Below, one piece after another: positions 8,645-64,000 of a DNA stretch of 64,000 nt. A program made the position numbers and the translations under genes. The notes beneath the pieces were generated by a model. It made no database searches and was not told the origin of the DNA. It saw only the letters and a list, made by a program, of their open reading frames with translations. Numbering within the stretch: position 1 is the first letter of the stretch; each line of letters begins with the position of its first letter. This DNA comes from Minisyncoccota bacterium (GTDB lineage Bacteria > Patescibacteriota > Minisyncoccia > Phycocordibacterales > UBA9973). Where the stretch lies: positions 607,834 through 671,833 of the forward strand of contig JAQULK010000001.1 in the NCBI GenBank assembly GCA_028718635.1, written 5' to 3'.

Positions 8645-10462
8645 TTAAAATAAAGTGGCTTTGATACGTCTAACACCTTGCGCAACTGCTTCTTCTTTTT
8701 GAATTTTAAATTTGCCCAATTCACCCGTATTGGAAACGTGCGGACCTCCACAGAATTCTCTGCTGAAATATCCTGTTTTTTCGTCTCCGATGGAGTAAAC
8801 TTTTACCATTTCTCCATATTTTTCATTAAAAGAATGTGTAGCGATTTTTTCTGCATCTGCTTTAGGCATTTCCACAAAACCAACCGGCAACTTTTCCGCA
8901 ATTTTATCATTTACAATTTCTTCCACTTTCTTCTTTTCTTCTTCGGTCATTTTTTGCGAATGAGTAAAATCAAAACGCAATCGCTCGCCGGTAATATTGC
9001 TTCCTTTTTGCATTACATGATTGCCGAGTACTTGCTTCAAAGCAGCATTCAGTAAATGTGTAGCAGTATGCAATTTTTTAGCTTCTTCCCCGCCGTCTGC
9101 CAGCCCGCCTTTAAACATCCCAGCAGAAGCAGAACGGGATTTTTCCTGATGATCCTTCAAGGCTTTATTTATTTCATCTTCGTCTACTTTGAATCCTAAG
9201 TCTTTGGCGGTGTTGACCAACAGCTCGATGGGATTTCCGTGTCTTTCAAAAAGAGTAAAGATAAATAATCCGGAAGCCGTATTTTTGTCTTTTAATATCG
9301 GAATATCTCCTGCTTTTTTTATGTTGCCTAATTTTGCAGCTTCCAGGTCAATACGGTATCTTTCAATTCCGTCAAAAGGCTTTTTAAATAATTTTTCTTC
9401 CTCCCTGATAACTGAAATAATATGATCAAATTTATTTTTTATTTCAGGATAAACTTTGTCATAAATTTCAGATATTAGAGAATTAAGTTCAATCCAGAAA
9501 TTATCTGAAAGTTTGATAATTGAGGCTTTAGAAAAAACTCTCCGAAGAAGACGGCGCAAAATATACCCGCGGCCAGTGTTAAAAGGCGTGACCTCGTCTA
9601 TGATCATAAATACTGCTGTACGAAAATGATCAGCAATAATTCGAGCAGAACGCAAATCATAATTTGCGCTTTTTTCTTTTATTAAATCCATCAACGGCTT
9701 GAACAAATCCGTCTCAAAAATATCATCTTTCCCTTGCACTGCCATTACTACTCGCTCGAGGCCCGCTCCGGTATCTACATTGCTTTGTTTGAGTTTCCCA
9801 ATTACTTTCCCATCAAACTTTTCGTATTCCATGAAAACATCGTTCCAGATTTCAATAACTTTCTGCTCCCCGTCAGCTTTCATGTATTCTTCTTTACTTA
9901 AATCTCCCAATCCTTCTTGCGTGATATCATAAAACATTTCAGTGTCAGGTCCACAGGGGCCATTGTCCCCCACGCTCCACCAATTCGATTTTGCGCTCAT
10001 ATAATAAATGCGATTTTCAGGGATATATTTTTTCCAAATATTAAAAGCTTCCGTGTCTTTGGGTGCGTTTTCATCACCTTCAAATACAGTTACATAAAGA
10101 CGTTTTGGGTCCAACCCTAAACCTTCCTCTTTGGAAGTTAAAAATTCATAGCTCCATTTTATAGCTTCTTCTTTAAAATAATCTCCAAGAGACCAATTGC
10201 CCATCATTTCAAAAAAAGTGTCATGAGTTTTATCCCCCACTTCGTCTATGTCTTGAGTGCGCACACACTTCTGAATGTTTACTAATCTGCTACCCATCGG
10301 ATGCTCCTCTCCTAGAAGATATGGCACAAGAGGTTGCATACCTGCAGTATTAAATAAAACAGAAGGATCATTTTCGGGTACTAGAGAAGCAGAAGGAATT
10401 ATTTTATGTCCTCGACTTTCAAAAAATTTTAGAAACCTTAATCTAATTTCGTCTGATTGCAT
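8645..10462 (-). CDS. alaS: Alanyl-tRNA synthetase, short form (catalytic plus editing domains; no C-Ala domain)
   Basis: N-terminus FESRGH..IPSASLVP.NDPSVLFNTAGMQP ... QKCVRTQDIDEVGDKTHDTFFEMMGNWSLGDYFK. C-terminus HTATHLLNAAL...CGGPHV editing-site motifs. Confidence 0.8.
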   Translation of the reverse strand: MQSDEIRLRFLKFFESRGHKIIPSASLVPENDPSVLFNTAGMQPLVPYLLGEEHPMGSRLVNIQKCVRTQDIDEVGDKTHDTFFEMMGNWSLGDYFKEEAIKWSYEFLTSKEEGLGLDPKRLYVTVFEGDENAPKDTEAFNIWKKYIPENRIYYMSAKSNWWSVGDNGPCGPDTEMFYDITQEGLGDLSKEEYMKADGEQKVIEIWNDVFMEYEKFDGKVIGKLKQSNVDTGAGLERVVMAVQGKDDIFETDLFKPLMDLIKEKSANYDLRSARIIADHFRTAVFMIIDEVTPFNTGRGYILRRLLRRVFSKASIIKLSDNFWIELNSLISEIYDKVYPEIKNKFDHIISVIREEEKLFKKPFDGIERYRIDLEAAKLGNIKKAGDIPILKDKNTASGLFIFTLFERHGNPIELLVNTAKDLGFKVDEDEINKALKDHQEKSRSASAGMFKGGLADGGEEAKKLHTATHLLNAALKQVLGNHVMQKGSNITGERLRFDFTHSQKMTEEEKKKVEEIVNDKIAEKLPVGFVEMPKADAEKIATHSFNEKYGEMVKVYSIGDEKTGYFSREFCGGPHVSNTGELGKFKIQKEEAVAQGVRRIKATLF

Positions 10463-10577
10463 CCCGTTAGAAGCAGGTTGCGGTCACCATACCGCAATTA
10501 TACTTAATTATGCTATTAAATTTTGTATTTCTTTTAAACATTAAATATATTTAACTGCGACCGCGGCTTCTAACGGG
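10463..10577. mobile_element. Start-codon-associated palindromic MITE-like element, copy 1, abutting the alaS ATG
   Basis: Terminal inverted repeats CCCGTTAGAAGCAGGTTGCGGTCA / TGCGACCGCGGCTTCTAACGGG. They are flanked by direct repeats ATGCAAT (10456-10462 and 10578-10584, minus sense). Confidence 0.6.
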
Positions 10578-12292: not shown

Positions 12293-12410
12293 GTTTTATT
12301 CGTAAACTCAAATATAATATTTTTGCCGGTACGGATTTTTTGAAGCTTAAAAAATCCTGAAATTCTCGCGCCGTCGCGCTCGAAACCCCTTAAAAACATT
12401 ATATTTGAGT

Positions 12411-29505: not shown

Positions 29506-29577
29506 GGCCTGGTAGCCAAGTGGTAAGGCATTCCTCTGCAAAAGGAATATACGGCGGTTCAATTCCGCCCCAGGCCT
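29506..29577 (+). tRNA. tRNA-Cys (GCA)
   Basis: Cloverleaf: acceptor GGCCTGG/CCAGGCC, anticodon loop CTGCAAA, T-loop TTCAATT. Confidence 0.8.
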
Positions 29578-29579
29578 CA

Positions 29580-31229
29580 TTAAAATATGTTAAAATATTT
29601 TAAGATAAATAATTGCCCAAGTGGCGTAATTGGTAGCCGCGCAAGACTTAAAATTTTGTGACCGCAAGGTCGTGTGGGTTCGATTCCCACCTTGGGCACC
29701 AGAATAGAACTAGACGGTTTTTCAGAAACCAAAATGCGGGACGCGCGAAGCGCGTCCCAAGGATTCCCGCCGAATTCCCCCAACGAATTCAGAATTTTTG
29801 GCGCGCTTGCGCGCACTAATTTTTCGCCAAGAAGCAGGTTCGAGCCAAAGATTTCTTTGGCTTTGACCTTTTTTGCAAAAAGGTCATCATCAGAAGCAAT
29901 TTTGTCCAAGGATTGAGCGTCTTTTATCCATTCTTTCATCGGTTCGAGCCAATCATTCTGCTTGTGTGAAAGAGAGGTTATTTCTTCTTGGAGAGACTTC
30001 TTTTCAGATAACAACTTTGCTTTTTGATTTCGATAATCTTGTTCATCAATTACTTGGTCTAAATATCCTGTAAGAAGTCGCTCTAACTTTTGTGAAATGA
30101 CCGATAGTCTTGTTTCGTTCTCTTTCACACAAGCAGTCAAAGACGGGGCGGAATTGTTAAAATCTTTTTCTGCCATTTTTAACAATTCTTCCGCCCAGTC
30201 TTTGGGCAAAGAAACTTTTTGTATTTCGGATGATAACTGGCGATCCAATTCTTTTTCTCGAACGGCAGACTCGGAGCATTTTATAGTTTTAGATTTTTTT
30301 GTACAACGATAATATGTGTATTCATGGACATTACCATTTTTCTGCCGTTTGAATTTGTGTTCGCCAGTTATCATCATCCCACAAGAAGCACAGGAAATGA
30401 GTCCGCAAAATGGTTGAGGTTCGTTTTGTGGTTTTCGTTCGGGTTGTCCACGGAGTTTCAACATTTCCTGTGCTTCATCAAAAAGTTTCATTGAAATAAT
30501 TGGCTCATGAATACCTTCATGAATTTCTCCGCCATATTTAAACAAACCGATATAGAACGGATTAGAGAGGATAAAAGACGCTTTGGTTTTGGAGATTCTC
30601 TTTCCGGTTCGAGTGGTAACGCCGGACTTTGCCAAAAATGATGACACATCTTCCAGTCGCATATTTCCTTTTGTGTATTTCTCAAAAGCCAAGCGCACGA
30701 TGCGAGATTTTTTCTTTTCCACCACGATTGTTTTTGTTCGTGAATCGTTGAGATAACCCACTGGCGCTTGGCTTGGGAATATACCCATTCTGACTTTTTG
30801 GCGAAGTCCGCGTTTCGTATTTTCGGAAAGAGAATCGACATAGTATTTGCTTTGTACAAAGGCCATAGAGAGCGTAAATTTGCCCTGTGGCGTACTTTCA
30901 AACCAAAACTGTGGGAACTTAAGGCTCACAAGCAATCCGATGTCTAAAAAGTAGACAATCTTTCCACCGTCCACCGAATTGCGGGCCAAACGATCTGGAT
31001 GCCAAGAGAGAATACAATCTGCATCGCCCTTTTCAATACGCTTCATCATTTCATTAAAAATTGGACGACCTGGAATTTTAGCAGATTGTTTTTCGATAAA
31101 CTCTTGGGCGATGTTCAGATTTTCTCTCTTGGCGAACTCCCGCAATTCGGTGAGTTGTGCGTCAATTGATAAAACCTGCTTGTCTTCGACATCGGTTGAC
31201 TTGCGAGCATACAAAAAGAATTTTTGCAT
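29580..31229 (-). CDS. Large serine recombinase (integrase/invertase). The ORF reads through tRNA-Leu(TAA) on the opposite strand before reaching a stop.
   Basis: Resolvase catalytic N-terminus (YARKSTDVEDKQVLSIDAQ), recombinase domain, zinc ribbon (CGLISCASCG...YYRC), coiled-coil C-terminus. The last ~45 codons lie inside the 149-bp inverted repeat. Confidence 0.8.
   Translation of the reverse strand: MQKFFLYARKSTDVEDKQVLSIDAQLTELREFAKRENLNIAQEFIEKQSAKIPGRPIFNEMMKRIEKGDADCILSWHPDRLARNSVDGGKIVYFLDIGLLVSLKFPQFWFESTPQGKFTLSMAFVQSKYYVDSLSENTKRGLRQKVRMGIFPSQAPVGYLNDSRTKTIVVEKKKSRIVRLAFEKYTKGNMRLEDVSSFLAKSGVTTRTGKRISKTKASFILSNPFYIGLFKYGGEIHEGIHEPIISMKLFDEAQEMLKLRGQPERKPQNEPQPFCGLISCASCGMMITGEHKFKRQKNGNVHEYTYYRCTKKSKTIKCSESAVREKELDRQLSSEIQKVSLPKDWAEELLKMAEKDFNNSAPSLTACVKENETRLSVISQKLERLLTGYLDQVIDEQDYRNQKAKLLSEKKSLQEEITSLSHKQNDWLEPMKEWIKDAQSLDKIASDDDLFAKKVKAKEIFGSNLLLGEKLVRASAPKILNSLGEFGGNPWDALRASRILVSEKPSSSILVPKVGIEPTRPCGHKILSLARLPITPLGQLFILKYFNIF
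29625..29701 (+). tRNA. tRNA-Leu (TAA), CCA encoded. Its last nucleotides form the end of the 149-bp inverted repeat.
   Basis: Acceptor GCCCAAG/CTTGGGC, anticodon loop CTTAAAA, long variable arm, T-loop TTCGATT, ACCA tail. Confidence 0.8.
29695..29843. repeat. IR1-left: 149-bp inverted repeat overlapping the recombinase 3' end and the tRNA-Leu(TAA) 3' end
   Basis: Reverse-complement match to 31426-31574 with one mismatch. Confidence 0.85.
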
Positions 31230-31243
31230 AATATTTTTCTAAA

Positions 31244-31306
31244 AGCAGAAATGGTTGTACTAGGCGCACAATCCCAACAATAAAGTTAAAATTGTTCTAG
31301 CACAAC
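31244..31306. promoter_or_regulatory. 20-bp imperfect inverted repeat pair in the recombinase upstream region; candidate operator or recombination site
   Basis: AGCAGAAATGGTTGTACTAG, 23-bp spacer, CTAGCACAACCATTTCTGCT. The arms match 19 of 20. Confidence 0.35.
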
Positions 31307-31425
31307 CATTTCTGCTAACTTTACTTAATAATAATTGTGCGCAAAGTCATTATACTACTTTTAGAAAAAAGACAAAAATTCTTTTTGTATTTAAAGCAAA
31401 TACTATGTCAAAATTGCTTCTGATT

Positions 31426-31574
31426 TCGAACCTGCTTCTTGGCGAAAAATTAGTGCGCGCAAGCGCGCCAAAAATTCTGAATTCGTTGGGGGAATTCGGC
31501 GGGAATCCTTGGGACGCGCTTCGCGCGTCCCGCATTTTGGCTTCTGAAAAACCGTCTAGTTCTATTCTGGTGCC
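31426..31574. repeat. IR1-right: inverted copy of the 149-bp repeat, including a copy of the tRNA-Leu 3'-terminal GGCACC
   Basis: Reverse complement of 29695-29843. It encodes the same recombinase C-terminal peptide on the plus strand. Confidence 0.85.
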
Positions 31575-31986
31575 TCTATTATACCAAGTTAGGACCTATT
31601 TTCAAAACAAAGTGAGGTAATCGCACGCGCGGAGCGCGTGGTGATGTGAAAGTTTTTCGTACGCTCGACGCAAAGCCCCGCCACTGCCTCGCTTCACTCG
31701 GCAACCCCAAAAAGAAAAAATGTTCCTTGCTCTTTTGATTTTCGCGGGGGGATTTTTTTCTAAAATGGAAAGGACATTTTTCTTTTTGGTGTTCTGCCTT
31801 CCAAGTATTCAGGCAGTGTGGCGGGGCTTCAATTCGGACTTCGGCAAAGCGGAAAATCTATTTTTCTGGGGGAAAGGATTTTTCCGCTTTGCCTCAGACT
31901 GTTTTTATTTTTGGCCCGCGCGCAGAAAGGGGTCTGGGGAATGAATGCGCGCGGGCTTTTGAGGCGGGGCTATTTTTTCCAATCTT
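31571..31986. repeat. IR2-left: ~415-bp GC-rich, highly structured inverted repeat; candidate structured RNA or recombination arm
   Basis: Reverse-complement identical to 36244-36657. It contains several perfect hairpins, including GGCAAAGCGGAAAATC...GATTTTCCGCTTTGCC, GCCCGCGCGC...GCGCGCGGGC and CACGCGC GGA GCGCGTG. Confidence 0.85.
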
Positions 31987-32149
31987 TAATAATCAAATGT
32001 CTTGCTTTGAGTTCAACAACCAATTTTTGTTTTTCTTTCCACTTTAGCTTGCGAACATATTCAATCGGCAAGGTTATAGAAAAGCTGTTGCCTCCGGCAA
32101 CTTTGGAAAGTTTTCTGATGTTATGATTTTGTGATTTTTGTGTTGGCAT
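31970..32149 (-). CDS. AbrB/MazE (SpoVT/AbrB swapped-hairpin) family small DNA-binding protein, 59 aa. It is not in the ORF track.
   Basis: Minus-strand translation MPTQKSQNHNIRKLSKVAGGNSFSITLPIEYVRKLKWKEKQKLVVELKARHLIIKDWKK matches the AbrB/MazE pattern K.G.S..VTIP.E....L....D.V.L...G..I.L. Confidence 0.45.
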   Translation of the reverse strand: MPTQKSQNHNIRKLSKVAGGNSFSITLPIEYVRKLKWKEKQKLVVELKARHLIIKDWKK

Positions 32150-32176
32150 AGTGGTTCATGAATACTTTCATGAGAA

Positions 32177-35100
32177 TCATTTATTTCCCATTAACTCATT
32201 TATTTTAGCTAAAGTGGTTTTGCCGACATAGCCAGTTCCTTTGATAAAACCCCATGGCACAAGAACATCCTTTACATATTTTTCTTGGAATTTGATTACT
32301 GCTTTTTTAGTGAGCAGACCGAAAAAATTGGTTTCTTTGCCAGGAGAACCAGCGCCTGAATCGGCCACTTTTGTATCTGGATCGGAATTGAGGAAAATTT
32401 GCAAGCGTTTAATATCGGCGTTTGTTTGTCTGTATTGCAAGTATTTAGTAAATGGATTGGTAAGCGACAAATTATTTGTCTGTTGCAAATTTTCCGTCGG
32501 GGTACTACTGGATTTTAGAATAATTGTACTTGAGGCAATACCTGACGATTGGCCATAGTATGTGAAGAATTTAACATAAATTTTGTATGTTCCGGCGGGA
32601 CAAGTTGGATTTTTTATCACATCAAATTTTGAGCAAAGATCAATTTGTTTGGTTGCTGAATAATTTTCTTGGCTGGCGTCATTGAAATCACCGGTCAAGG
32701 AAATTGCCATTTTTTTAACATCTGAACCAGCGTTGAAGTTGAGATTAACAATTCTGCTTGTAGTTGTACCTGCTCCAGAATTTACTAAAACTTTGAATCC
32801 GCCTGTCGGCGTTATTGGTAAATTACTCCAACCTGCTGGCATACCACCGCCTCCACACCCGCTCGTTGATTTTGTAATTGAAATTGAACTAGTTTCTGTT
32901 CCGTCACCGTTTCTATATATTACGGAGTAATCGTATGAATGACCGCAAGATAATCCGGTATCTGTCCAGGAGTTAGTTTGTATCCAGCCAGAATTGGCAC
33001 CGGAACGAGAAAAATAATATCCTGATGTTCCGCTTGTATCATTTGGAAAACTATCAACGCTCAAAGTTACACTGTTTGAATTTGATGAGGCGGAAAGATT
33101 AGTTGGAATCGGAGCTAAAGTATATCTAGACAATGAATCAGAAAAAGCGGATTCGTTTAAATTGTTATCCCGTGCTTTGACTTGATAAGTATATTGAGTA
33201 TTAGCGGAAAGTCCGGAGTCAATTAAAGAAGTTGATGATTGCCAGTCAGAAGAAGATGATCCGCCAGAGTGTCCTGTTGTTTCGTTGAACCAATATGGAG
33301 CTGAGTGTAATCCCGGGTCTGCATCAGTAGCCGTCTGAGATGTAATAGTTAATTGAGTTGTTGAATCAATAGATATAGACGAAATGCCTACATTAGTTGG
33401 CGCGCCTGTATTTTGTTCCAAAGCAAAAATGTGTGTGGAATATCCCCCAGTATAGGTAAATGTTAAATTACCCGAAGAATCTGAAAGGCATAACCCGTTG
33501 GTGCAGGTATCACCGGTAATTGCAGTTGTGGAGGCTACCCCGTCTAATTTAAATTGGTAATACTTACTCGATGCTAAATTACCAATTGTATAAATGGTAT
33601 TTGTTGCGATAGACGAGGTGGCTGTCCATTGCTTGTTCTTTGTTCCTGATGTTAGCCAAGAATCAAGAGTAACATTTATATACTCACTGTAATCAGATGA
33701 AGGCCAGCCGCCAACAGGAGAAACTGAAAAATTAGCAGATTGTGTGCTTGATGTGGCTGTAGTGTATCTATATTTTCCGTCAGAATAAATTCTGATTGAA
33801 CCAGTCGGGTCAACTAAATCTGTGCCAATAGTATATGGTGGTTGATATTCGTATGCACCAATATCGGGAGTGCCGTAAATATGGTTGCCAGAAATATCAG
33901 TGGTCAAGGAAAGGTTGGTACCGGTATCTATGCCAGGCGACAAATTTTGAAGAGAATAAATATTGCTCGAAGAATCTAGAAACAAAGGATTTGCATTAAT
34001 GCTATTAGCATCTTTTCCTGTAATAGCATTATCACTAATTAACGCCGTTTTCCACAAGCTAAAATCAGTATAATTTGTACCATTCAACGCAGATAAATGC
34101 GCACCATTAGGAGCATAATACAAGTTATTATCAATACCGACAGAAGTATAAGGTCCTGAAATTGAAACATTTTGTAAATTATTTCCGAGAGAAGCCTCCG
34201 TATAGACAAGATTATTTTTAAAGATTACTTTTTTTCCACTTGTTTGTGTATCCATGCCATGTCCATATCCTCCAGGGGCAGATGGATTATGAATAACCGT
34301 ATTGTTATAAAATGTGGATGTATTTATCGTAGATTGACCGGTAAAGTTAAGACCGTTAACATGGGCGTTTCTAACTAGGTTATAGTAATAATTATTACCT
34401 CCATTACCAGAAGTTACCCCATCGCTTATCTGACCTTCCAATAAATTGTTTCTGTAGATATTATTGGTAGCACTTGATCCAGCAATAAATATTCCGGAAC
34501 CACTCATGGTGGGGTATTCTAATAAATTCCAAGTATATGATATATTGTTACCAAAAATAGAATTGGAGTTCGCATTATTTAAAAAAACACCATATTGAAA
34601 ACTATTTGTGGTACTTGTACCGATAATATTTGTTGAGACATTGGAATTACTACTACCATTCAAATATATCCCAATAAGAGCGGCACTTGTTTTATCAGAA
34701 TTTGTGTTTGTAATAGTATTTCCCGTTATAGTGTGCGAGTTGGTGGTCACGGAGATTCCCTGACTTACTGTTCCGTTTGTCACTATTGAATTGCTGGTTA
34801 TATTAAGCGTTGTCGCTGTATCGACAGTGATACCATAATTGAAACCATTGCTCGCAGTGCTACCAATTATGTTTTGATCTATTGTACTATTGCTGGAAAC
34901 TCCAGTAATAAAAATGCCCACTAATCCAGCATTTGTTTTTGTGACATTAGAGTTGGTCATTGTATTACCACGAACAACTGTTGATGCTCCAGTGTTCACA
35001 TAAACTCCTTTTGCCCCAACCGCACTCGTAACAATTGTATTGTTTAATATCTGAGTGCCAGTCACACCACCAGTGGTGATATAAATGCCCGTGCCTAAAT

Positions 35101-35590
35101 CGTTAGTAATATCGCATCTTTGTACGATTCCGCCACTCATTGAACCCATGAAAACTAAAGCACCATTGGTATCACCTCCTCTTAAATCTAAATCCTGGAA
35201 CGTTACATTACTTTTACCGTTTGATAAAACAGCGTGGATATTCGTATCAGTTATAGCATTCAAAATTGGTTTATTTCCTGTACCATATGCTCCTGTAACT
35301 ATTGGAGTTGTTACGCCACCCTCATCGGCTGTTATATAAACATTTGAGAATGAATCTCCTCGATTGAATAATATTTCATCACCACTTACCAATACAGTAG
35401 AGGCAGACAATCCAGTCGCAGAACCGTCCCAAGGATGATGAGCCCAGGTCGTCGATATTGAAGTTCCATTGTTTGAATCTGACCCAGTAGCACTTATATA
35501 ATACGTTGTCGCACTTGCCGACTTAACAAATAAAAAGCAAGTTCCGAATATAACGAAAACAAAAAAGATTTTATAATATTTATTCAACAT
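32177..35590 (-). CDS. Giant secreted surface protein: right-handed parallel beta-helix repeats, Ig/FN3-like middle region, C-terminal peptidoglycan-binding domain
   Basis: Signal peptide. Dozens of NxTI/GxxxN beta-helix rungs with a DIGAYEY cap. C-terminal IKRLQIFLNSDPD...GLLTKKAVIKFQEKY resembles a PG_binding_1 domain. Confidence 0.7.
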   Translation of the reverse strand: MLNKYYKIFFVFVIFGTCFLFVKSASATTYYISATGSDSNNGTSISTTWAHHPWDGSATGLSASTVLVSGDEILFNRGDSFSNVYITADEGGVTTPIVTGAYGTGNKPILNAITDTNIHAVLSNGKSNVTFQDLDLRGGDTNGALVFMGSMSGGIVQRCDITNDLGTGIYITTGGVTGTQILNNTIVTSAVGAKGVYVNTGASTVVRGNTMTNSNVTKTNAGLVGIFITGVSSNSTIDQNIIGSTASNGFNYGITVDTATTLNITSNSIVTNGTVSQGISVTTNSHTITGNTITNTNSDKTSAALIGIYLNGSSNSNVSTNIIGTSTTNSFQYGVFLNNANSNSIFGNNISYTWNLLEYPTMSGSGIFIAGSSATNNIYRNNLLEGQISDGVTSGNGGNNYYYNLVRNAHVNGLNFTGQSTINTSTFYNNTVIHNPSAPGGYGHGMDTQTSGKKVIFKNNLVYTEASLGNNLQNVSISGPYTSVGIDNNLYYAPNGAHLSALNGTNYTDFSLWKTALISDNAITGKDANSINANPLFLDSSSNIYSLQNLSPGIDTGTNLSLTTDISGNHIYGTPDIGAYEYQPPYTIGTDLVDPTGSIRIYSDGKYRYTTATSSTQSANFSVSPVGGWPSSDYSEYINVTLDSWLTSGTKNKQWTATSSIATNTIYTIGNLASSKYYQFKLDGVASTTAITGDTCTNGLCLSDSSGNLTFTYTGGYSTHIFALEQNTGAPTNVGISSISIDSTTQLTITSQTATDADPGLHSAPYWFNETTGHSGGSSSSDWQSSTSLIDSGLSANTQYTYQVKARDNNLNESAFSDSLSRYTLAPIPTNLSASSNSNSVTLSVDSFPNDTSGTSGYYFSRSGANSGWIQTNSWTDTGLSCGHSYDYSVIYRNGDGTETSSISITKSTSGCGGGGMPAGWSNLPITPTGGFKVLVNSGAGTTTSRIVNLNFNAGSDVKKMAISLTGDFNDASQENYSATKQIDLCSKFDVIKNPTCPAGTYKIYVKFFTYYGQSSGIASSTIILKSSSTPTENLQQTNNLSLTNPFTKYLQYRQTNADIKRLQIFLNSDPDTKVADSGAGSPGKETNFFGLLTKKAVIKFQEKYVKDVLVPWGFIKGTGYVGKTTLAKINELMGNK

Positions 35591-35596
35591 AATTTA

Positions 35597-35932
35597 TTAT
35601 TTCTTTTGCAATACCGTCGAAACTTCAAAAATTGAGGTTTTCTTCAGTACAATTTTGTAAACACTTTCCAAAAAATCGCCACCAGCGTAACCGACAACAA
35701 ACGCTAATGCCGGAGTAAATTCACCAAGACCAAAAAAGTTTAATCCAAGTTCTTTTGTTGCAACTGCGGTCAAAAGACCAATAATGCCGGAGATAAAAAC
35801 CATAACGAAAAAATACAAAGTTTCAAATTTAGGCGTTTTGTAAGAAAACTGTTTGAAAAATCCAAACAAAGCTCTTACCATTCCTCCGCCGAATCCGGCG
35901 ATCAATATTGAGAAGTAAAATGATTCCCACAT
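35597..35932 (-). CDS. Small three-transmembrane membrane protein. It is the first gene of the surface-protein operon; a holin-like role is possible.
   Basis: Three hydrophobic helices; translationally adjacent to the giant gene. Confidence 0.3.
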   Translation of the reverse strand: MWESFYFSILIAGFGGGMVRALFGFFKQFSYKTPKFETLYFFVMVFISGIIGLLTAVATKELGLNFFGLGEFTPALAFVVGYAGGDFLESVYKIVLKKTSIFEVSTVLQKK

Positions 35933-36042
35933 AGTTTTGATAAGTTAATTGTTAATAATTAAATACAAAAAACACCGCAAAAACGGTGTTATAATTTAAG
36001 TGGAAAAGTTAAACAAACAAAAACACGGAGAGCGCGTGTTAC

Positions 36043-36062
36043 TCTCTCTCTCTCTCTCTCTC
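36043..36062. repeat. (CT)10 dinucleotide repeat in the operon upstream region
   Basis: ctctctctctctctctctct, about 110 bp upstream of the first ATG of the operon. Confidence 0.9.
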
Positions 36063-36243
36063 GATTCGTGCCGAAATTTTGTTCATAATTTTTTTGATAA
36101 TAACGTCTCCAACCATATTTGTATTATAGCAAATTTTGGTGTAAAGTGTAAATACAAAGTCAAGCTGTGAATTTCGTTTTCCCCCACCCAAAAACTAGCG
36201 GAGTAAGCGGAGGATTATCCAATATCATGAATGTATTCATGAG

Positions 36244-36657
36244 GATTGGAAAAAATAGCCCCGCCTCAAAAGCCCGCGCGCATTCATTCCCCAGACCCCT
36301 TTCTGCGCGCGGGCCAAAAATAAAAACAGTCTGAGGCAAAGCGGAAAAATCCTTTCCCCCAGAAAAATAGATTTTCCGCTTTGCCGAAGTCCGAATTGAA
36401 GCCCCGCCACACTGCCTGAATACTTGGAAGGCAGAACACCAAAAAGAAAAATGTCCTTTCCATTTTAGAAAAAAATCCCCCCGCGAAAATCAAAAGAGCA
36501 AGGAACATTTTTTCTTTTTGGGGTTGCCGAGTGAAGCGAGGCAGTGGCGGGGCTTTGCGTCGAGCGTACGAAAAACTTTCACATCACCACGCGCTCCGCG
36601 CGTGCGATTACCTCACTTTGTTTTGAAAATAGGTCCTAACTTGGTATAATAGAGGCA
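36244..36657. repeat. IR2-right: inverted copy of the ~415-bp structured repeat
   Basis: Reverse complement of 31571-31986. Confidence 0.85.
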
Positions 36658-36691
36658 CATTACGTTAGGTAAGACCCAACGTAAAAGTTTT

Positions 36692-36764
36692 GCGCCCTTA
36701 GCTCAGCTGGTAGAGCAGATCCCTCTTAAGGATAAGGTCGTTGGTTCGATCCCAACAGGGCGCA
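36692..36764 (+). tRNA. tRNA-Lys (CTT)
   Basis: Acceptor GCGCCCT/AGGGCGC, D-arm TAGCTCAGCTGGTAGAGC, anticodon loop CTCTTAA, T-loop TTCGATC. Confidence 0.8.
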
Positions 36765-36767
36765 CAT

Positions 36768-36849
36768 GCCGGGATGGCGGAATTGGTATACGCGCTAGTC
36801 TTAGGAACTAGTGGGGCAACCCTTGGGAGTTCGAGTCTCCCTCCCGGCA
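36768..36849 (+). tRNA. tRNA-Leu (TAG)
   Basis: Acceptor GCCGGGA/TCCCGGC, anticodon loop CTTAGGA, long variable arm, T-loop TTCGAGT. Confidence 0.8.
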
Positions 36850-36945
36850 CAAATATATGGGATATATTTTTGCCAGACTCGAAAGCCGGAAGCCGACGGG
36901 CTGAGGCGGGGTCGCAGGATTTTTCAGTAGAAAAATACCTGTGAC

Positions 36946-36965
36946 CGAGTCTCCCTCCCGGCACA
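36946..36965 (+). repeat. 20-bp direct repeat of the tRNA-Leu(TAG) 3' end; att-like scar
   Basis: CGAGTCTCCCTCCCGGCACA repeats 36832-36851, 95 bp downstream of the tRNA. Confidence 0.6.
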
Positions 36966-63040: not shown

Positions 63041-63905
63041 TTTCGTTAAACTACGAATTTGTGTTCCCACCGAACGGACGGATTTCCCGTATTCGGCGAG
63101 CTCTAATGCATGTGTTGTTTTAAGGAATACAACTTCTTTAATCCAGATTCTTTTAAATGTATACCATTATCAATCATCGAAAACATTTTGCAAAATATAT
63201 CGAAATCTTTCTTTTTTGAAGGAAATTTCAATATGTGTTTCTTGAAAAATGGAATTATGACTGATTTTAGGTCGTTTCTATTGTAAACTTCATATCTATA
63301 ACAATTTTGATGATTGGGACGCGTATCTTTTTGAAAATACACACTGCCACAACCAAAGAAATTTTTTAATTGATATAAAATCTTTTTATCTTTCTCAACA
63401 AGTTTCAAATAAAATTTTGGTTCTATTTTAACTCTCCGAGAATGAGAAACTTTAGAAGGATTTCGAACGTAAACAGTAAAACTGCCTTCGCCATCCACTA
63501 AACCTATAATGTAATCTGGGTTAATGTTTTGCATAGAGTGAATACCTTCCCTTGACATAAGGTCGAGGTACTATGATTCAGCTGACTTCTGACGCTGCGT
63601 AAGTTTAATTATATCATATCTTTCGAAATGACAACAACATCAGATCTCCACAGGTCACTTAAAATTCTTTTCCAAACATCCCAAACGAGCTTTTCTACGA
63701 GTTTTCCCTACCCTCACCACCCACTAGTAGGTCAACTGACTCTTTTTTATGTCGGGCTGCTCTTTGTTTCCAGATCCTCCACCATTTACCTCGCGGTAAA
63801 AGGCTATCTTTCTACTACGCTTCGATTACGAATCGAAGGAATGGATTTAAACCATTTAGAAAATTAAGCTGCTGCGCGCTTTTATTGTGAGTACAAGACT
63901 TGAGA
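63041..63905 (-). mobile_element. Intron (group I type presumed) inside the 16S rRNA gene, carrying a LAGLIDADG homing-endonuclease ORF
   Basis: The exon sequence CTTGTAC / CGCCCGTC is split by ~860 bp of non-rRNA sequence that contains the endonuclease ORF on the same strand. Confidence 0.65.
63103..63558 (-). CDS. LAGLIDADG homing endonuclease (intron-encoded)
   Basis: IIGLVDGEGSF motif; ~150-aa single-motif LAGLIDADG layout. Confidence 0.75.
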   Translation of the reverse strand: MSREGIHSMQNINPDYIIGLVDGEGSFTVYVRNPSKVSHSRRVKIEPKFYLKLVEKDKKILYQLKNFFGCGSVYFQKDTRPNHQNCYRYEVYNRNDLKSVIIPFFKKHILKFPSKKKDFDIFCKMFSMIDNGIHLKESGLKKLYSLKQHMH

Positions 63906-63952
63906 ACGTATTCACCGCAGTTTAGCTGACCTGCGATTACTAGCAATTCCAG

Positions 63953-63988
<36 letters not shown>

Positions 63989-64000
63989 AGGGCCACTTTT

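Follow-up and report, generated by a model that had tools for sequence, protein, structure and literature searches.

The closest described elements to the one reported here are the ssrA islands of Dehalococcoides (PMC3146451), in which a serine integrase of ~540 aa, DsiB, lies beside attL with an open reading frame (ORF) that runs into the target gene. Cargo shuttles of 10-20 kb are also known at the tRNA genes of Prochlorococcus, where they are called tycheposons (bioRxiv 10.1101/2020.12.28.424599). Here we describe an insert between two tRNA genes in a stretch of 64,000 nucleotides from a Minisyncoccota bacterium (assembly GCA_028718635.1, contig JAQULK010000001.1, positions 607,834 to 671,833), referred to below as the window. 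The insert, which encodes a large serine recombinase and a cargo operon, is in our judgement probably an integrated small element whose attachment (att) sites can be assigned from its repeat ends. This agrees with an initial annotation of the window, which had proposed a recombinase-driven mobile cassette at a tRNA distinct from a prophage, integron, shufflon or Hin/Gin-type switch. The insert is apparently one copy of a very common, seemingly undescribed family of small mobile elements of Patescibacteria, the candidate phyla radiation (CPR); no description of the family was found in the full-text literature, of which the coverage was incomplete, so that a prior description is possible.

The insert is built around two pairs of inverted repeats, both detected with a repeat finder. 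The copies of repeat A (29695-29843 and 31426-31574, called A and A′) are 149 nt long and identical at 148 of 149 positions, whereas those of repeat B (31570-31993 and 36235-36658, called B and B′) span 424 nt at 99% identity and are perfect over 415 nt. The pairs overlap by 5 nt, and A′ and B form one contiguous block of ~570 bp; the two halves of this A′.B block, reverse-complemented, make up both ends of the insert. Arm A opens with the final 7 nt (GGCACCA) of tRNA-Leu(TAA), and A′ carries their reverse complement. The initial annotation had found the tRNAs, the recombinase gene and both repeat pairs within a few bases of the positions obtained with ARAGORN, Rfam, Pfam and the repeat finder. 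It had also recognised the overlap of arm A with the tRNA and its reverse-complement copy, and the abutment of the two repeat pairs, but with six nucleotides instead of seven for the former and 4 bp instead of 5 nt for the latter. Its description of the arms as GC-rich and full of hairpins holds as well: they contain 45-50% GC, compared with 33-42% in their surroundings in the window, and fold much better than shuffled sequences on both strands (z -4.7 and -6.7). The Rfam family that it suggested looking for in the repeats did not emerge, as a search of the arms at gathering and permissive thresholds gave no family besides the tRNAs.

When the repeat ends are compared in the same orientation, three junctions appear. 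At junction s1 tRNA-Leu is joined to A (..CCTTGGGCAC followed by CAGAATAGAAC), at s2, which is internal and inverted, B′ is joined to A (..TATAATAGAGGCAC followed by CAGAATAGAAC), and at s3 B′ is joined to the spacer before tRNA-Lys (..TATAATAGAGGCAC followed by ATTACGTTAGG). The same trio, with the tRNA ending in CACCA before A, B′ ending in CACCA before A, and B′ ending in CAC(CA) before the flank, is found in the window and in 11 complete genome loci, several of them on 200-600-kb contigs. It is the pattern expected of a conservative exchange between an attP composed of B′.A and an attB composed of the tRNA and its spacer, which makes s1 attL and s3 attR. The repeat ends are thus best read, from their sequences, as attL, internal inverted attP and attR of an integrative element, not as two sites of an invertase. 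Comparison of the three junctions places the crossover of attL within GCAC (29696-29699). The attR site holds just a 3-5 nt core, and the distal boundary shows no directly repeated tRNA 3′ end. The reconstructed attB (..GGGCA/CATTACG.., with the slash at the junction) has no encoded CCA and in this matches the 3′ ends of the three other tRNAs nearby in the window; the CCA on tRNA-Leu(TAA) is therefore now supplied by the element. The common core corresponds to C72-A73-C74 of the tRNA. It covaries with the discriminator base, since a sub-lineage with CTCC in arm B sits at tRNAs with a U discriminator (CTCC), and the crossover dinucleotide consequently most likely includes position 73.

Another conserved motif has a constant spacing. 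In every tRNA junction a TCGAA box starts at nt 17 from the core (GGTG), whereas in every arm-B end a box of the form TCGAA, TAGAA or CCGAA starts at nt 21 (~38 junctions of each kind). Large serine integrases have an arm-side recognition box a few base pairs farther out than the one on the target side. In the element the boxes are offset by 4 bp, and an outward shift of ~5 bp has reportedly been observed for the A118 attP as compared with its attB. By analogy, the offset of 17 versus 21 nt resembles the attB/attP half-site shift of large serine integrases. The recombinase probably recognises the T-arm box (GGTTCGA) by its set spacing from the crossover, which would explain generic targeting of tRNA genes.

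Movement of the element can be followed in a syntenic relative (locus L084) that has ~75% nucleotide identity to the window and shares ClpB, IF-2, RbfA and the same four tRNAs; in the window, IF-2 and RbfA are the housekeeping genes that flank the insert upstream. In L084, tRNA-Lys follows 17 nt after tRNA-Leu(TAA), which represents the empty site of the window element and is the junction that the initial annotation had advised seeking in related genomes. Conversely, L084 has a B′/flank junction downstream of the tRNA-Tyr position, beside ClpB, where the flank in the window is uninterrupted. With one site empty in L084 and another filled there and empty in the window, the element has, by this sequence comparison, evidently moved. 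L084 further contains a rearranged recombinase module at tRNA-Leu(TAG), in which the 5′ side of the recombinase gene faces the tRNA. Because the arms of this module differ at 6/148 positions, the reversed arrangement is not an assembly ambiguity. At 10029-10465 the same locus carries a truncated second copy of the recombinase gene, fused 34 bp after an arm-B end, and the separate B′/flank junction beside ClpB lies at 83-353; this genome thus holds at least two elements.

The far boundary of the element requires a correction. The initial annotation had let the locus end at tRNA-Lys and tRNA-Leu(TAG), followed by a duplication of the 3′ end of the latter, and the 20-bp direct repeat that it reported is indeed exact (36832-36851 and 36946-36965), but the element ends at 36658, before tRNA-Lys. 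The repeat at 36946-36965 belongs to tRNA-Leu(TAG) and is a separate feature outside the serine-recombinase element, not its boundary. The segment 36852-36965 consists of a 94-bp stretch after tRNA-Leu(TAG), followed by the exact 20-bp copy of the tRNA 3′ end, which starts in the T loop. The 94-bp stretch resembles the spacer between tRNA-Lys and tRNA-Leu(TAG) in L084 (7945-8053). The segment has the appearance of a tRNA gene that was relocated and of whose old copy just the final 20 nt are left, or of a scar made by a different type of integrase.

Scans for recombinase homologues in species-representative genomes and in metagenome contigs, with the best 80 loci of each kept, showed how widespread the element is. 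Among the candidates scored, 7,792 homologues reached E<=1e-20; the best 120, assigned in their sources to Parcubacteria, Paceibacterota, Yanofskybacteria and similar groups, are 70-91% identical. Confirmed loci number 225 in species-representative genomes and >563 in metagenome contigs. An A-type inverted repeat of 114-172 bp covers the 3′ end of the recombinase gene and has a copy ~200 bp upstream of the start codon; this A/A′ arrangement is present in ~60/80 genome loci, while most of the others have no upstream sequence. Loci with assembled sequence on both sides all have a second repeat pair (136-480 bp) that directly adjoins the first, with 1.1-5.4 kb between its copies. Complete elements measure 3.5-7.5 kb (n=12, the window and 11 others). 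Most contigs break off within the repeat block, at 25-500 bp before the start of the recombinase gene, which indicates that the element breaks assemblies. Tandem integron-like cassette arrays were looked for among the loci and not found, each locus having one cargo module.

The outer end of arm A, beside the 3′ end of the recombinase gene, overlaps the 3′ end of a tRNA in 118 loci. The targets in these loci comprise 25 tRNA species for 13 amino acids, of which Leu, Val and Tyr are commonest, and recombinases that are >80% identical to one another occupy different tRNAs. The Leu and Tyr tRNAs, which have a long variable arm, account for about half of the identified targets (53/110), and this suggests a target preference beyond the T-arm box.

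The cargo differs from one element to the next: the 12 complete elements share no cargo protein, and each cargo is unrelated to the others. Pfam searches identified a TdeIII-type restriction enzyme with two methylases, an Eco57I-like enzyme with a helix-turn-helix (HTH) regulator, a zeta toxin with an HD protein, ArsR with an ArsP permease (arsenic), an aminotransferase with a Glu/Leu dehydrogenase and tRNA synthetase fragments, and a SAM (S-adenosylmethionine) methyltransferase; SAVED-domain and membrane proteins occur in further relatives. In view of these unrelated cargoes, the beta-helix wall protein of the window is one cargo among many. Capsid, terminase, replication and packaging genes are absent from the 12 complete elements, and the window element carries no transfer, replication or virion genes. 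The cargo described in the initial annotation (the 1137-aa beta-helix protein with a weak peptidoglycan-binding match, the membrane protein, the 59-aa MazE/AbrB protein and the (CT)10 tract) is present as described. The best-matching promoter-like site of the cargo operon, running from 36152 to 36123, has 11/12 consensus matches and a TG; it lies inside the B-bounded segment, so a flip of the segment would not switch the cargo on or off. A (CT)10C sequence at 36042-36062, (AG)10 on the coding strand, is located between this strong promoter match and a hairpin at 35990-35971. The tract may be prone to slippage or may act as an attenuator. Arm B is a mosaic of conserved modules; its first ~270 nt are 87-89% identical among the window, L014, L082 and L084, which carry differing cargoes, and the arm therefore belongs to the backbone.

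The window enzyme is a large serine recombinase of the integrase type and a distant member of the large serine integrases. It matches the Pfam domains Resolvase (PF00239, E 9e-22), Recombinase (PF07508, 1e-14) and Zn_ribbon_recom (PF13408, 1e-8) and contains the YARKST serine motif. The nearest solved relatives are the A118 integrase (LI) and SPbeta SprA (matches 4KIS and 9DXH), with <=27% identity to phage integrases and <=29% to any phage or plasmid record; no relatives were found in IMG/VR. Arm A spans approximately codons 462-511. The initial annotation had the repeat encode the last ~45 codons of the gene, and the coding overlap is correct, but the ORF runs on antisense through the tRNA to its stop. 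The residues after ~511 are not conserved. If the upstream arm copy were read into B, the recombinase would obtain the tail ...VPLLYQVRTYFQNKVR followed by a stop. An inversion would thus change the C-terminal tail, as had been predicted, and both tails are found in relatives: about 75% of the top homologues have a tRNA-antisense tail and about 20% a B-encoded one (tail LLYQVRTYFQNKVR), which is also seen in ~13% of metagenome loci.

Upstream of the recombinase gene, a putative -10 sequence (TATAAT, 31354-31349) is kept in L084; it was read by eye and missed by a promoter scan. Immediately before the start codon is a 20-bp inverted repeat (31244-31263 and 31297-31316, with a 33-nt spacer) that is conserved in L084, L086, L102 and L108. 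This repeat could be an operator or a hairpin in the 5′ untranslated region that controls the recombinase. A 71-aa ORF (31405-31620) was considered as a regulator and rejected, because its start codon is not conserved in L084.

The arms also contain candidate transcription signals. The last 40 nt of arm B include a promoter-like sequence, TTGAAA-16-TGgTATAAT, which matches at 11/12 positions, has the TG and points outward across the crossover; within the window's subfamily, every one of the ~38 arm-B ends retains it. At the internal attP the site runs from 31605 to 31578 and reads across the core into A′, toward the recombinase gene. At attR it points to tRNA-Lys, which is 34 nt past the end of the element, and to tRNA-Leu(TAG), both on the same strand, and it may restore transcription of the interrupted tRNA cluster. 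Arm A, when read inward from the core, presents terminator-like hairpins, and each A arm may shield the recombinase gene from outside transcription. A role of arm A as intrinsic terminator of the recombinase mRNA was rejected on the ground that the T-run is not conserved across subfamilies.

In the 3′ region of the recombinase gene there are 3-5 perfect hairpins at conserved positions (3.15 per 185 nt, compared with 0.23 in shuffles). Hairpins were called per sequence and columns were counted with the core as anchor; RNAalifold applied to a mixed-subfamily alignment of the arms returned almost nothing, as MAFFT had misaligned the hairpins. For the hairpin 38-58 nt from the core, 89% of cells in 110 distinct arms pair, versus 32-58% with slid partner columns. 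The stem positions exchange AT/CG (54/44), CG/GC (53/39), GC/TA (73/18) and CG/GC (74/17) among these arms, and the peptide encoded there shifts with the stem substitutions (WDALRAS, WACLRHA, WAALCAA). Such compensatory changes that alter the peptide indicate selection on nucleic-acid structure inside formal coding sequence.

Table 1. Positions of the insert, its proposed attachment sites and neighbouring features in the window.
Feature	Position	Strand	Description
Insert (whole element)	29,700-36,658		~6.96 kb, between tRNA-Leu(TAA) and tRNA-Lys
tRNA-Cys	29506-29578		ARAGORN and Rfam
tRNA-Leu(TAA)	29615-29701	+	Proposed integration target; contributes the left attB half (T-arm box and 3′ end)
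tRNA-Lys	36692-36765		ARAGORN and Rfam
tRNA-Leu(TAG)	36768-36850		ARAGORN and Rfam
Proposed attL (junction s1)	29670-29725		tRNA half joined to arm A, ..CCTTGGGCAC followed by CAGAATAGAAC
Arm A, tRNA-adjoining copy	29695-29843		P′ half of proposed attP, conserved hairpin array, terminator-like hairpins, recombinase codons ~462-511
Large serine recombinase ORF	29580-31229	-	549 aa; Pfam
Recombinase upstream region	31244-31354	-	Putative -10 and 20-bp inverted repeat just before ATG
Arm A′	31426-31574		Inverted copy of A, upstream of the recombinase gene
Proposed internal intact attP (junction s2, inverted)	31545-31610	-	B′ end, GGCACCA, then arm A
Arm B, left copy	31570-31993		P half of proposed attP, T-arm-box mimic, putative outward promoter, mosaic hairpin modules
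Cargo: 59-aa MazE/AbrB-fold protein	31970-32149	-	PF04014, E 4e-6
Cargo: 1137-aa secreted right-handed beta-helix protein	32177-35590	-	Beta_helix/NosD; weak PG_binding_1 match at C terminus
Cargo: 111-aa membrane protein	35597-35932	-	Faint holin-like match only (E 0.007, below Pfam cutoff)
Cargo operon leader	35971-36152	-	Promoter-like site, (CT)10C tract, terminator-like hairpin
Arm B′, right copy	36235-36658		Putative outward promoter 36623-36650 (+) toward tRNA-Lys
Proposed attR (junction s3)	36630-36691		..TATAATAGAGGCAC followed by ATTACGTT; B′ end joined to native spacer before tRNA-Lys

Elsewhere in the window, the 3′ end of a 16S rRNA gene (minus strand, 63840-64000) runs off the window end. 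An intergenic element of ~100 bp, dissimilar to both arm A and arm B, is present in two inverted copies (249-351 and 12304-12406, 91% identical). With a GC hairpin inside a terminal inverted repeat of its own (AATAATGTTTTT..AAAAACATTATT), it resembles a miniature inverted-repeat transposable element.

Several relatives bear on the reactivity of the internal attP. Four loci (L013, L036, L045 and L126) have their recombinase module flanked by a pair of convergent tRNA genes, and in L036 the B-cargo-B′ module is found 6 kb from it. These split loci, in which all four sites are hybrid, correspond to the product expected of recombination between the internal attP and a second tRNA gene, with inversion of the intervening DNA. 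The arms of three of the four have decayed to 83-89% identity, compared with a median of ~99% in ordinary loci. The existence of split derivatives with two tRNAs implies that the internal attP is reactive. In L009/L099, arm-B ends are present on both sides of the recombinase module; with arms just 90.6% identical the assembly is unambiguous, and the arrangement is the one expected in a circle. Three contigs in which the recombinase gene reads into B have tRNA-joined twins that are 100% or 99.6% identical. As evidence of circles or of flipping, contigs that read into B are suggestive only.

From these data the following mechanism can be proposed. The conserved backbone of the element consists of the recombinase gene and two inverted copies of the ~570-bp attachment region (B′.A), and the cargo between the B arms is exchangeable. 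In a circular form the junction B′.A would serve as attP, which the recombinase would pair with a tRNA 3′ end as attB; crossover at tRNA positions 72-74 (C-A-C) would then yield attL (tRNA/A) and attR (B′/flank). If the strict target features are those common to most tRNAs, the family could enter almost any tRNA gene. On integration, arm A would rebuild the tRNA 3′ end and its hairpins should halt transcription from the tRNA side, while the outward promoter of arm B′ would be aimed at the DNA formerly downstream of the tRNA, here tRNA-Lys and tRNA-Leu(TAG). The A′.B copy would remain as an intact attP between recombinase and cargo; as a result the same inward-facing hairpin arm would bracket the recombinase gene on both sides, and the arm-B promoter and a recombinase-binding site would be placed upstream of it. 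This internal attP could pair with a second tRNA gene, invert the chromosome between the two and split the element.

A number of observations count against this interpretation or parts of it. The arm-B box also sits in the promoter spacer, and its conservation could reflect promoter function and not binding of the recombinase. The promoter match, and the T-run after the hairpin, are missing in some subfamilies, and no more than about half of the loci checked have genes beyond attR that run in the direction of the outward promoter, as far as crude gene calls can tell. In at least ~90% of chromosomal loci the 3′ end of the recombinase gene is at the tRNA, whereas two equivalent attPs predict both orientations in equal numbers; a possible explanation of the skew is that the other orientation would place the recombinase gene behind a strong tRNA promoter. 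Only L084 and L009/L099 show an unambiguous alternative arrangement, and most reversed-junction contigs start inside an identical arm and possibly represent wrong paths through a collapsed 147-bp repeat. A search for closed circular contigs by terminal overlaps found none. Large serine integrases normally need a recombination directionality factor for attL x attR recombination. No excision-factor gene is conserved and the complete elements share no second gene, which leaves it unexplained how circles arise; an ORF inside arm B is conserved only as DNA.

The same features can be considered from the viewpoint of other explanations. In an invertible phase-variation switch, the recombinase would flip the recombinase segment, the cargo segment or both, and thereby switch the surface protein or the recombinase tail. 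The two segments, each enclosed by long inverted repeats whose outer ends carry the crossover core, fit such a system, which would also account for both tails among homologues, for 100% identical recombinase genes with either junction, and for the recombinase segment of L084 being reversed relative to its tRNA. We nevertheless regard a switch as unlikely, since the enzyme is a 549-aa integrase-type protein, not a ~190-aa invertase, the three sites are hybrids of the attL, attP and attR type with different outer halves, and the alternative-junction contigs are mostly possible repeat-resolution artefacts. Inversion may well occur, but it leaves the empty sites, the target range and the turnover of cargo unexplained. 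A surface-antigen switch, which the initial annotation had envisaged, is not supported as the main role, with 12 unrelated cargoes in 12 relatives and the cargo promoter match within the segment. Somewhat less probable again is a pair of adjoining elements with terminal inverted repeats that use the same enzyme, an autonomous A-recombinase-A′ unit and a non-autonomous B-cargo-B′ unit. Each module does have its own terminal inverted repeats ending at the same core, the modules are apart in split locus L036, and many contigs of 1.7-2.6 kb hold the recombinase module only. Serine recombinases exchange strands conservatively, and inverted sites give inversion, not excision. Moreover, all complete assemblies show the cargo unit directly adjoining the recombinase unit in an unchanged relation, the outer junction halves behave as one attB split by a single insertion, and short recombinase-only contigs are the expected output of an assembler at the repeat.

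The tRNA-integrated position and the serine integrase would also suit a degraded prophage or phage satellite, and the faint holin-like match of the 111-aa protein (E 0.007) could be taken in its favour. The absence of structural, packaging and replication genes from the complete elements, of recombinase relatives from IMG/VR, and the low identity to phage integrases make such an origin very improbable. An assembly duplication or chimera as the source of the repeats, a concern raised in the initial annotation, has next to no likelihood. Artefactual contigs do exist around these repeats elsewhere: L090 and L082 are perfect palindromes of the form tRNA/A-rec-A′B-cargo-B′A-rec-A′/tRNA and are certain assembler artefacts. 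Such contigs, which result from walking back through the inverted repeats, are a warning for short-read mining of these elements. The double inverted-repeat layout of the window, however, recurs in dozens of assemblies made independently in many studies, some with contigs of 200-600 kb, and the arms of some relatives differ by 1-10%, which a duplication artefact would not give.

Any purpose of the second attP is proposed here with much lower confidence than the integrative-element interpretation itself. One speculative and rather improbable idea is that it acts as a splint for single-stranded DNA. Patescibacteria are naturally competent, and transforming DNA enters as a single strand. On an incoming strand, A could pair with A′ and B with B′, and the continuous A′.B strand would align the element ends (the 3′ end of B′ and the 5′ end of A) across the 5-nt core; flap trimming and ligation could then produce a precise single-stranded circle with a ready double-stranded attP. 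If true, this would let the element leave donor DNA and enter a new genome without an excision factor. It would also explain why the arms are far longer than a recombinase site needs, why an inverted full attP is always kept without a directionality factor, and how the family came to be distributed over many CPR lineages with recombinases that are 85-95% identical.

The data indicate that a single abundant and simple family of elements carries genes for defence, toxins, transport, metabolism and wall proteins from one CPR bacterium to another. These bacteria have tiny genomes and few mobile elements have been described for them. The recombinase of the family apparently recognises a near-universal feature of tRNAs, which is unusual for a large serine integrase and possibly of interest for genome engineering, since tRNA T-arms are conserved across life. 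The retained live attP would provide a ready mechanism for inversions between tRNA genes, as attested by the split derivatives, and the element is a practical cause of contig breaks beside tRNA genes in CPR metagenome assemblies.

Compared with known systems, the element differs from the switches and transposons that use small serine recombinases. In the phage P1 C segment the cix sites lie at the outer ends of 0.6-kb repeats. Similar to the Hin, Gin and Cin systems and the P1 C segment, the element has a serine recombinase gene beside a segment with crossover sites at the outer repeat ends. Those systems, however, employ a small invertase (~190 aa, with a C-terminal helix-turn-helix), an enhancer with Fis and two identical sites; they switch gene ends or a promoter, are non-mobile on their own and do not target tRNAs. 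Here, no promoter would be moved and no conserved gene ends exchanged, as only the non-conserved recombinase tail would change. IS607-type serine transposons use a small enzyme whose DNA-binding domain is N-terminal, lack terminal inverted repeats and are not very specific in their targets, whereas the element combines a large enzyme with a C-terminal DNA-binding region, long inverted repeats and a tRNA 3′-end target. Integrons rely on the tyrosine recombinase IntI, attI and arrays of attC-bounded cassettes, in contrast to the serine recombinase and single cargo module of the element. The yeast 2-micron plasmid carries FLP/FRT in 599-bp inverted repeats with the recombinase gene in one of two unique segments. 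A circle of the element, if formed, would similarly have two long inverted repeats that hold recombinase targets, but FLP is a tyrosine recombinase and the plasmid replicates autonomously without integrating, while no replication function is seen in the element.

Integrative mobilisable elements and tRNA islets resemble the element in having an integrase beside an att site, insertion at a tRNA 3′ end, cargo and no transfer genes; the directly repeated tRNA 3′ end of that class is absent here. The tycheposons are likewise small cargo shuttles at tRNAs that remodel flexible gene content; they differ in their mostly tyrosine recombinases, each integrase being specific to one tRNA, in the replication genes carried by many of them and in having no internal inverted attachment site. 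The ssrA islands share with the element a cargo without transfer genes and a variable C-terminal tail of the integrase (PMC3146451). They use one site, the T loop of ssrA, with a 20-bp direct repeat. Their integration module comprises six genes, one of which encodes a second, small serine recombinase, and inverted repeats are not part of their description. With the large serine integrases of A118 (LI), phiC31, Bxb1 and SPbeta (SprA), the element has in common the three-domain enzyme, a short core and no long target duplication. It differs from those systems in the absence of phage genes, in having no evident directionality factor and in a sequence identity of <=27%, in a target that is a feature common to most tRNA genes instead of one locus, and in keeping a second, inverted attP within arms of 150 and 140-480 bp. 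The element thus belongs to a known class, the large serine integrase elements, in which it is distinguished by its generic tRNA targeting, a fixed internal inverted attP in long structured arms and exchangeable cargo.

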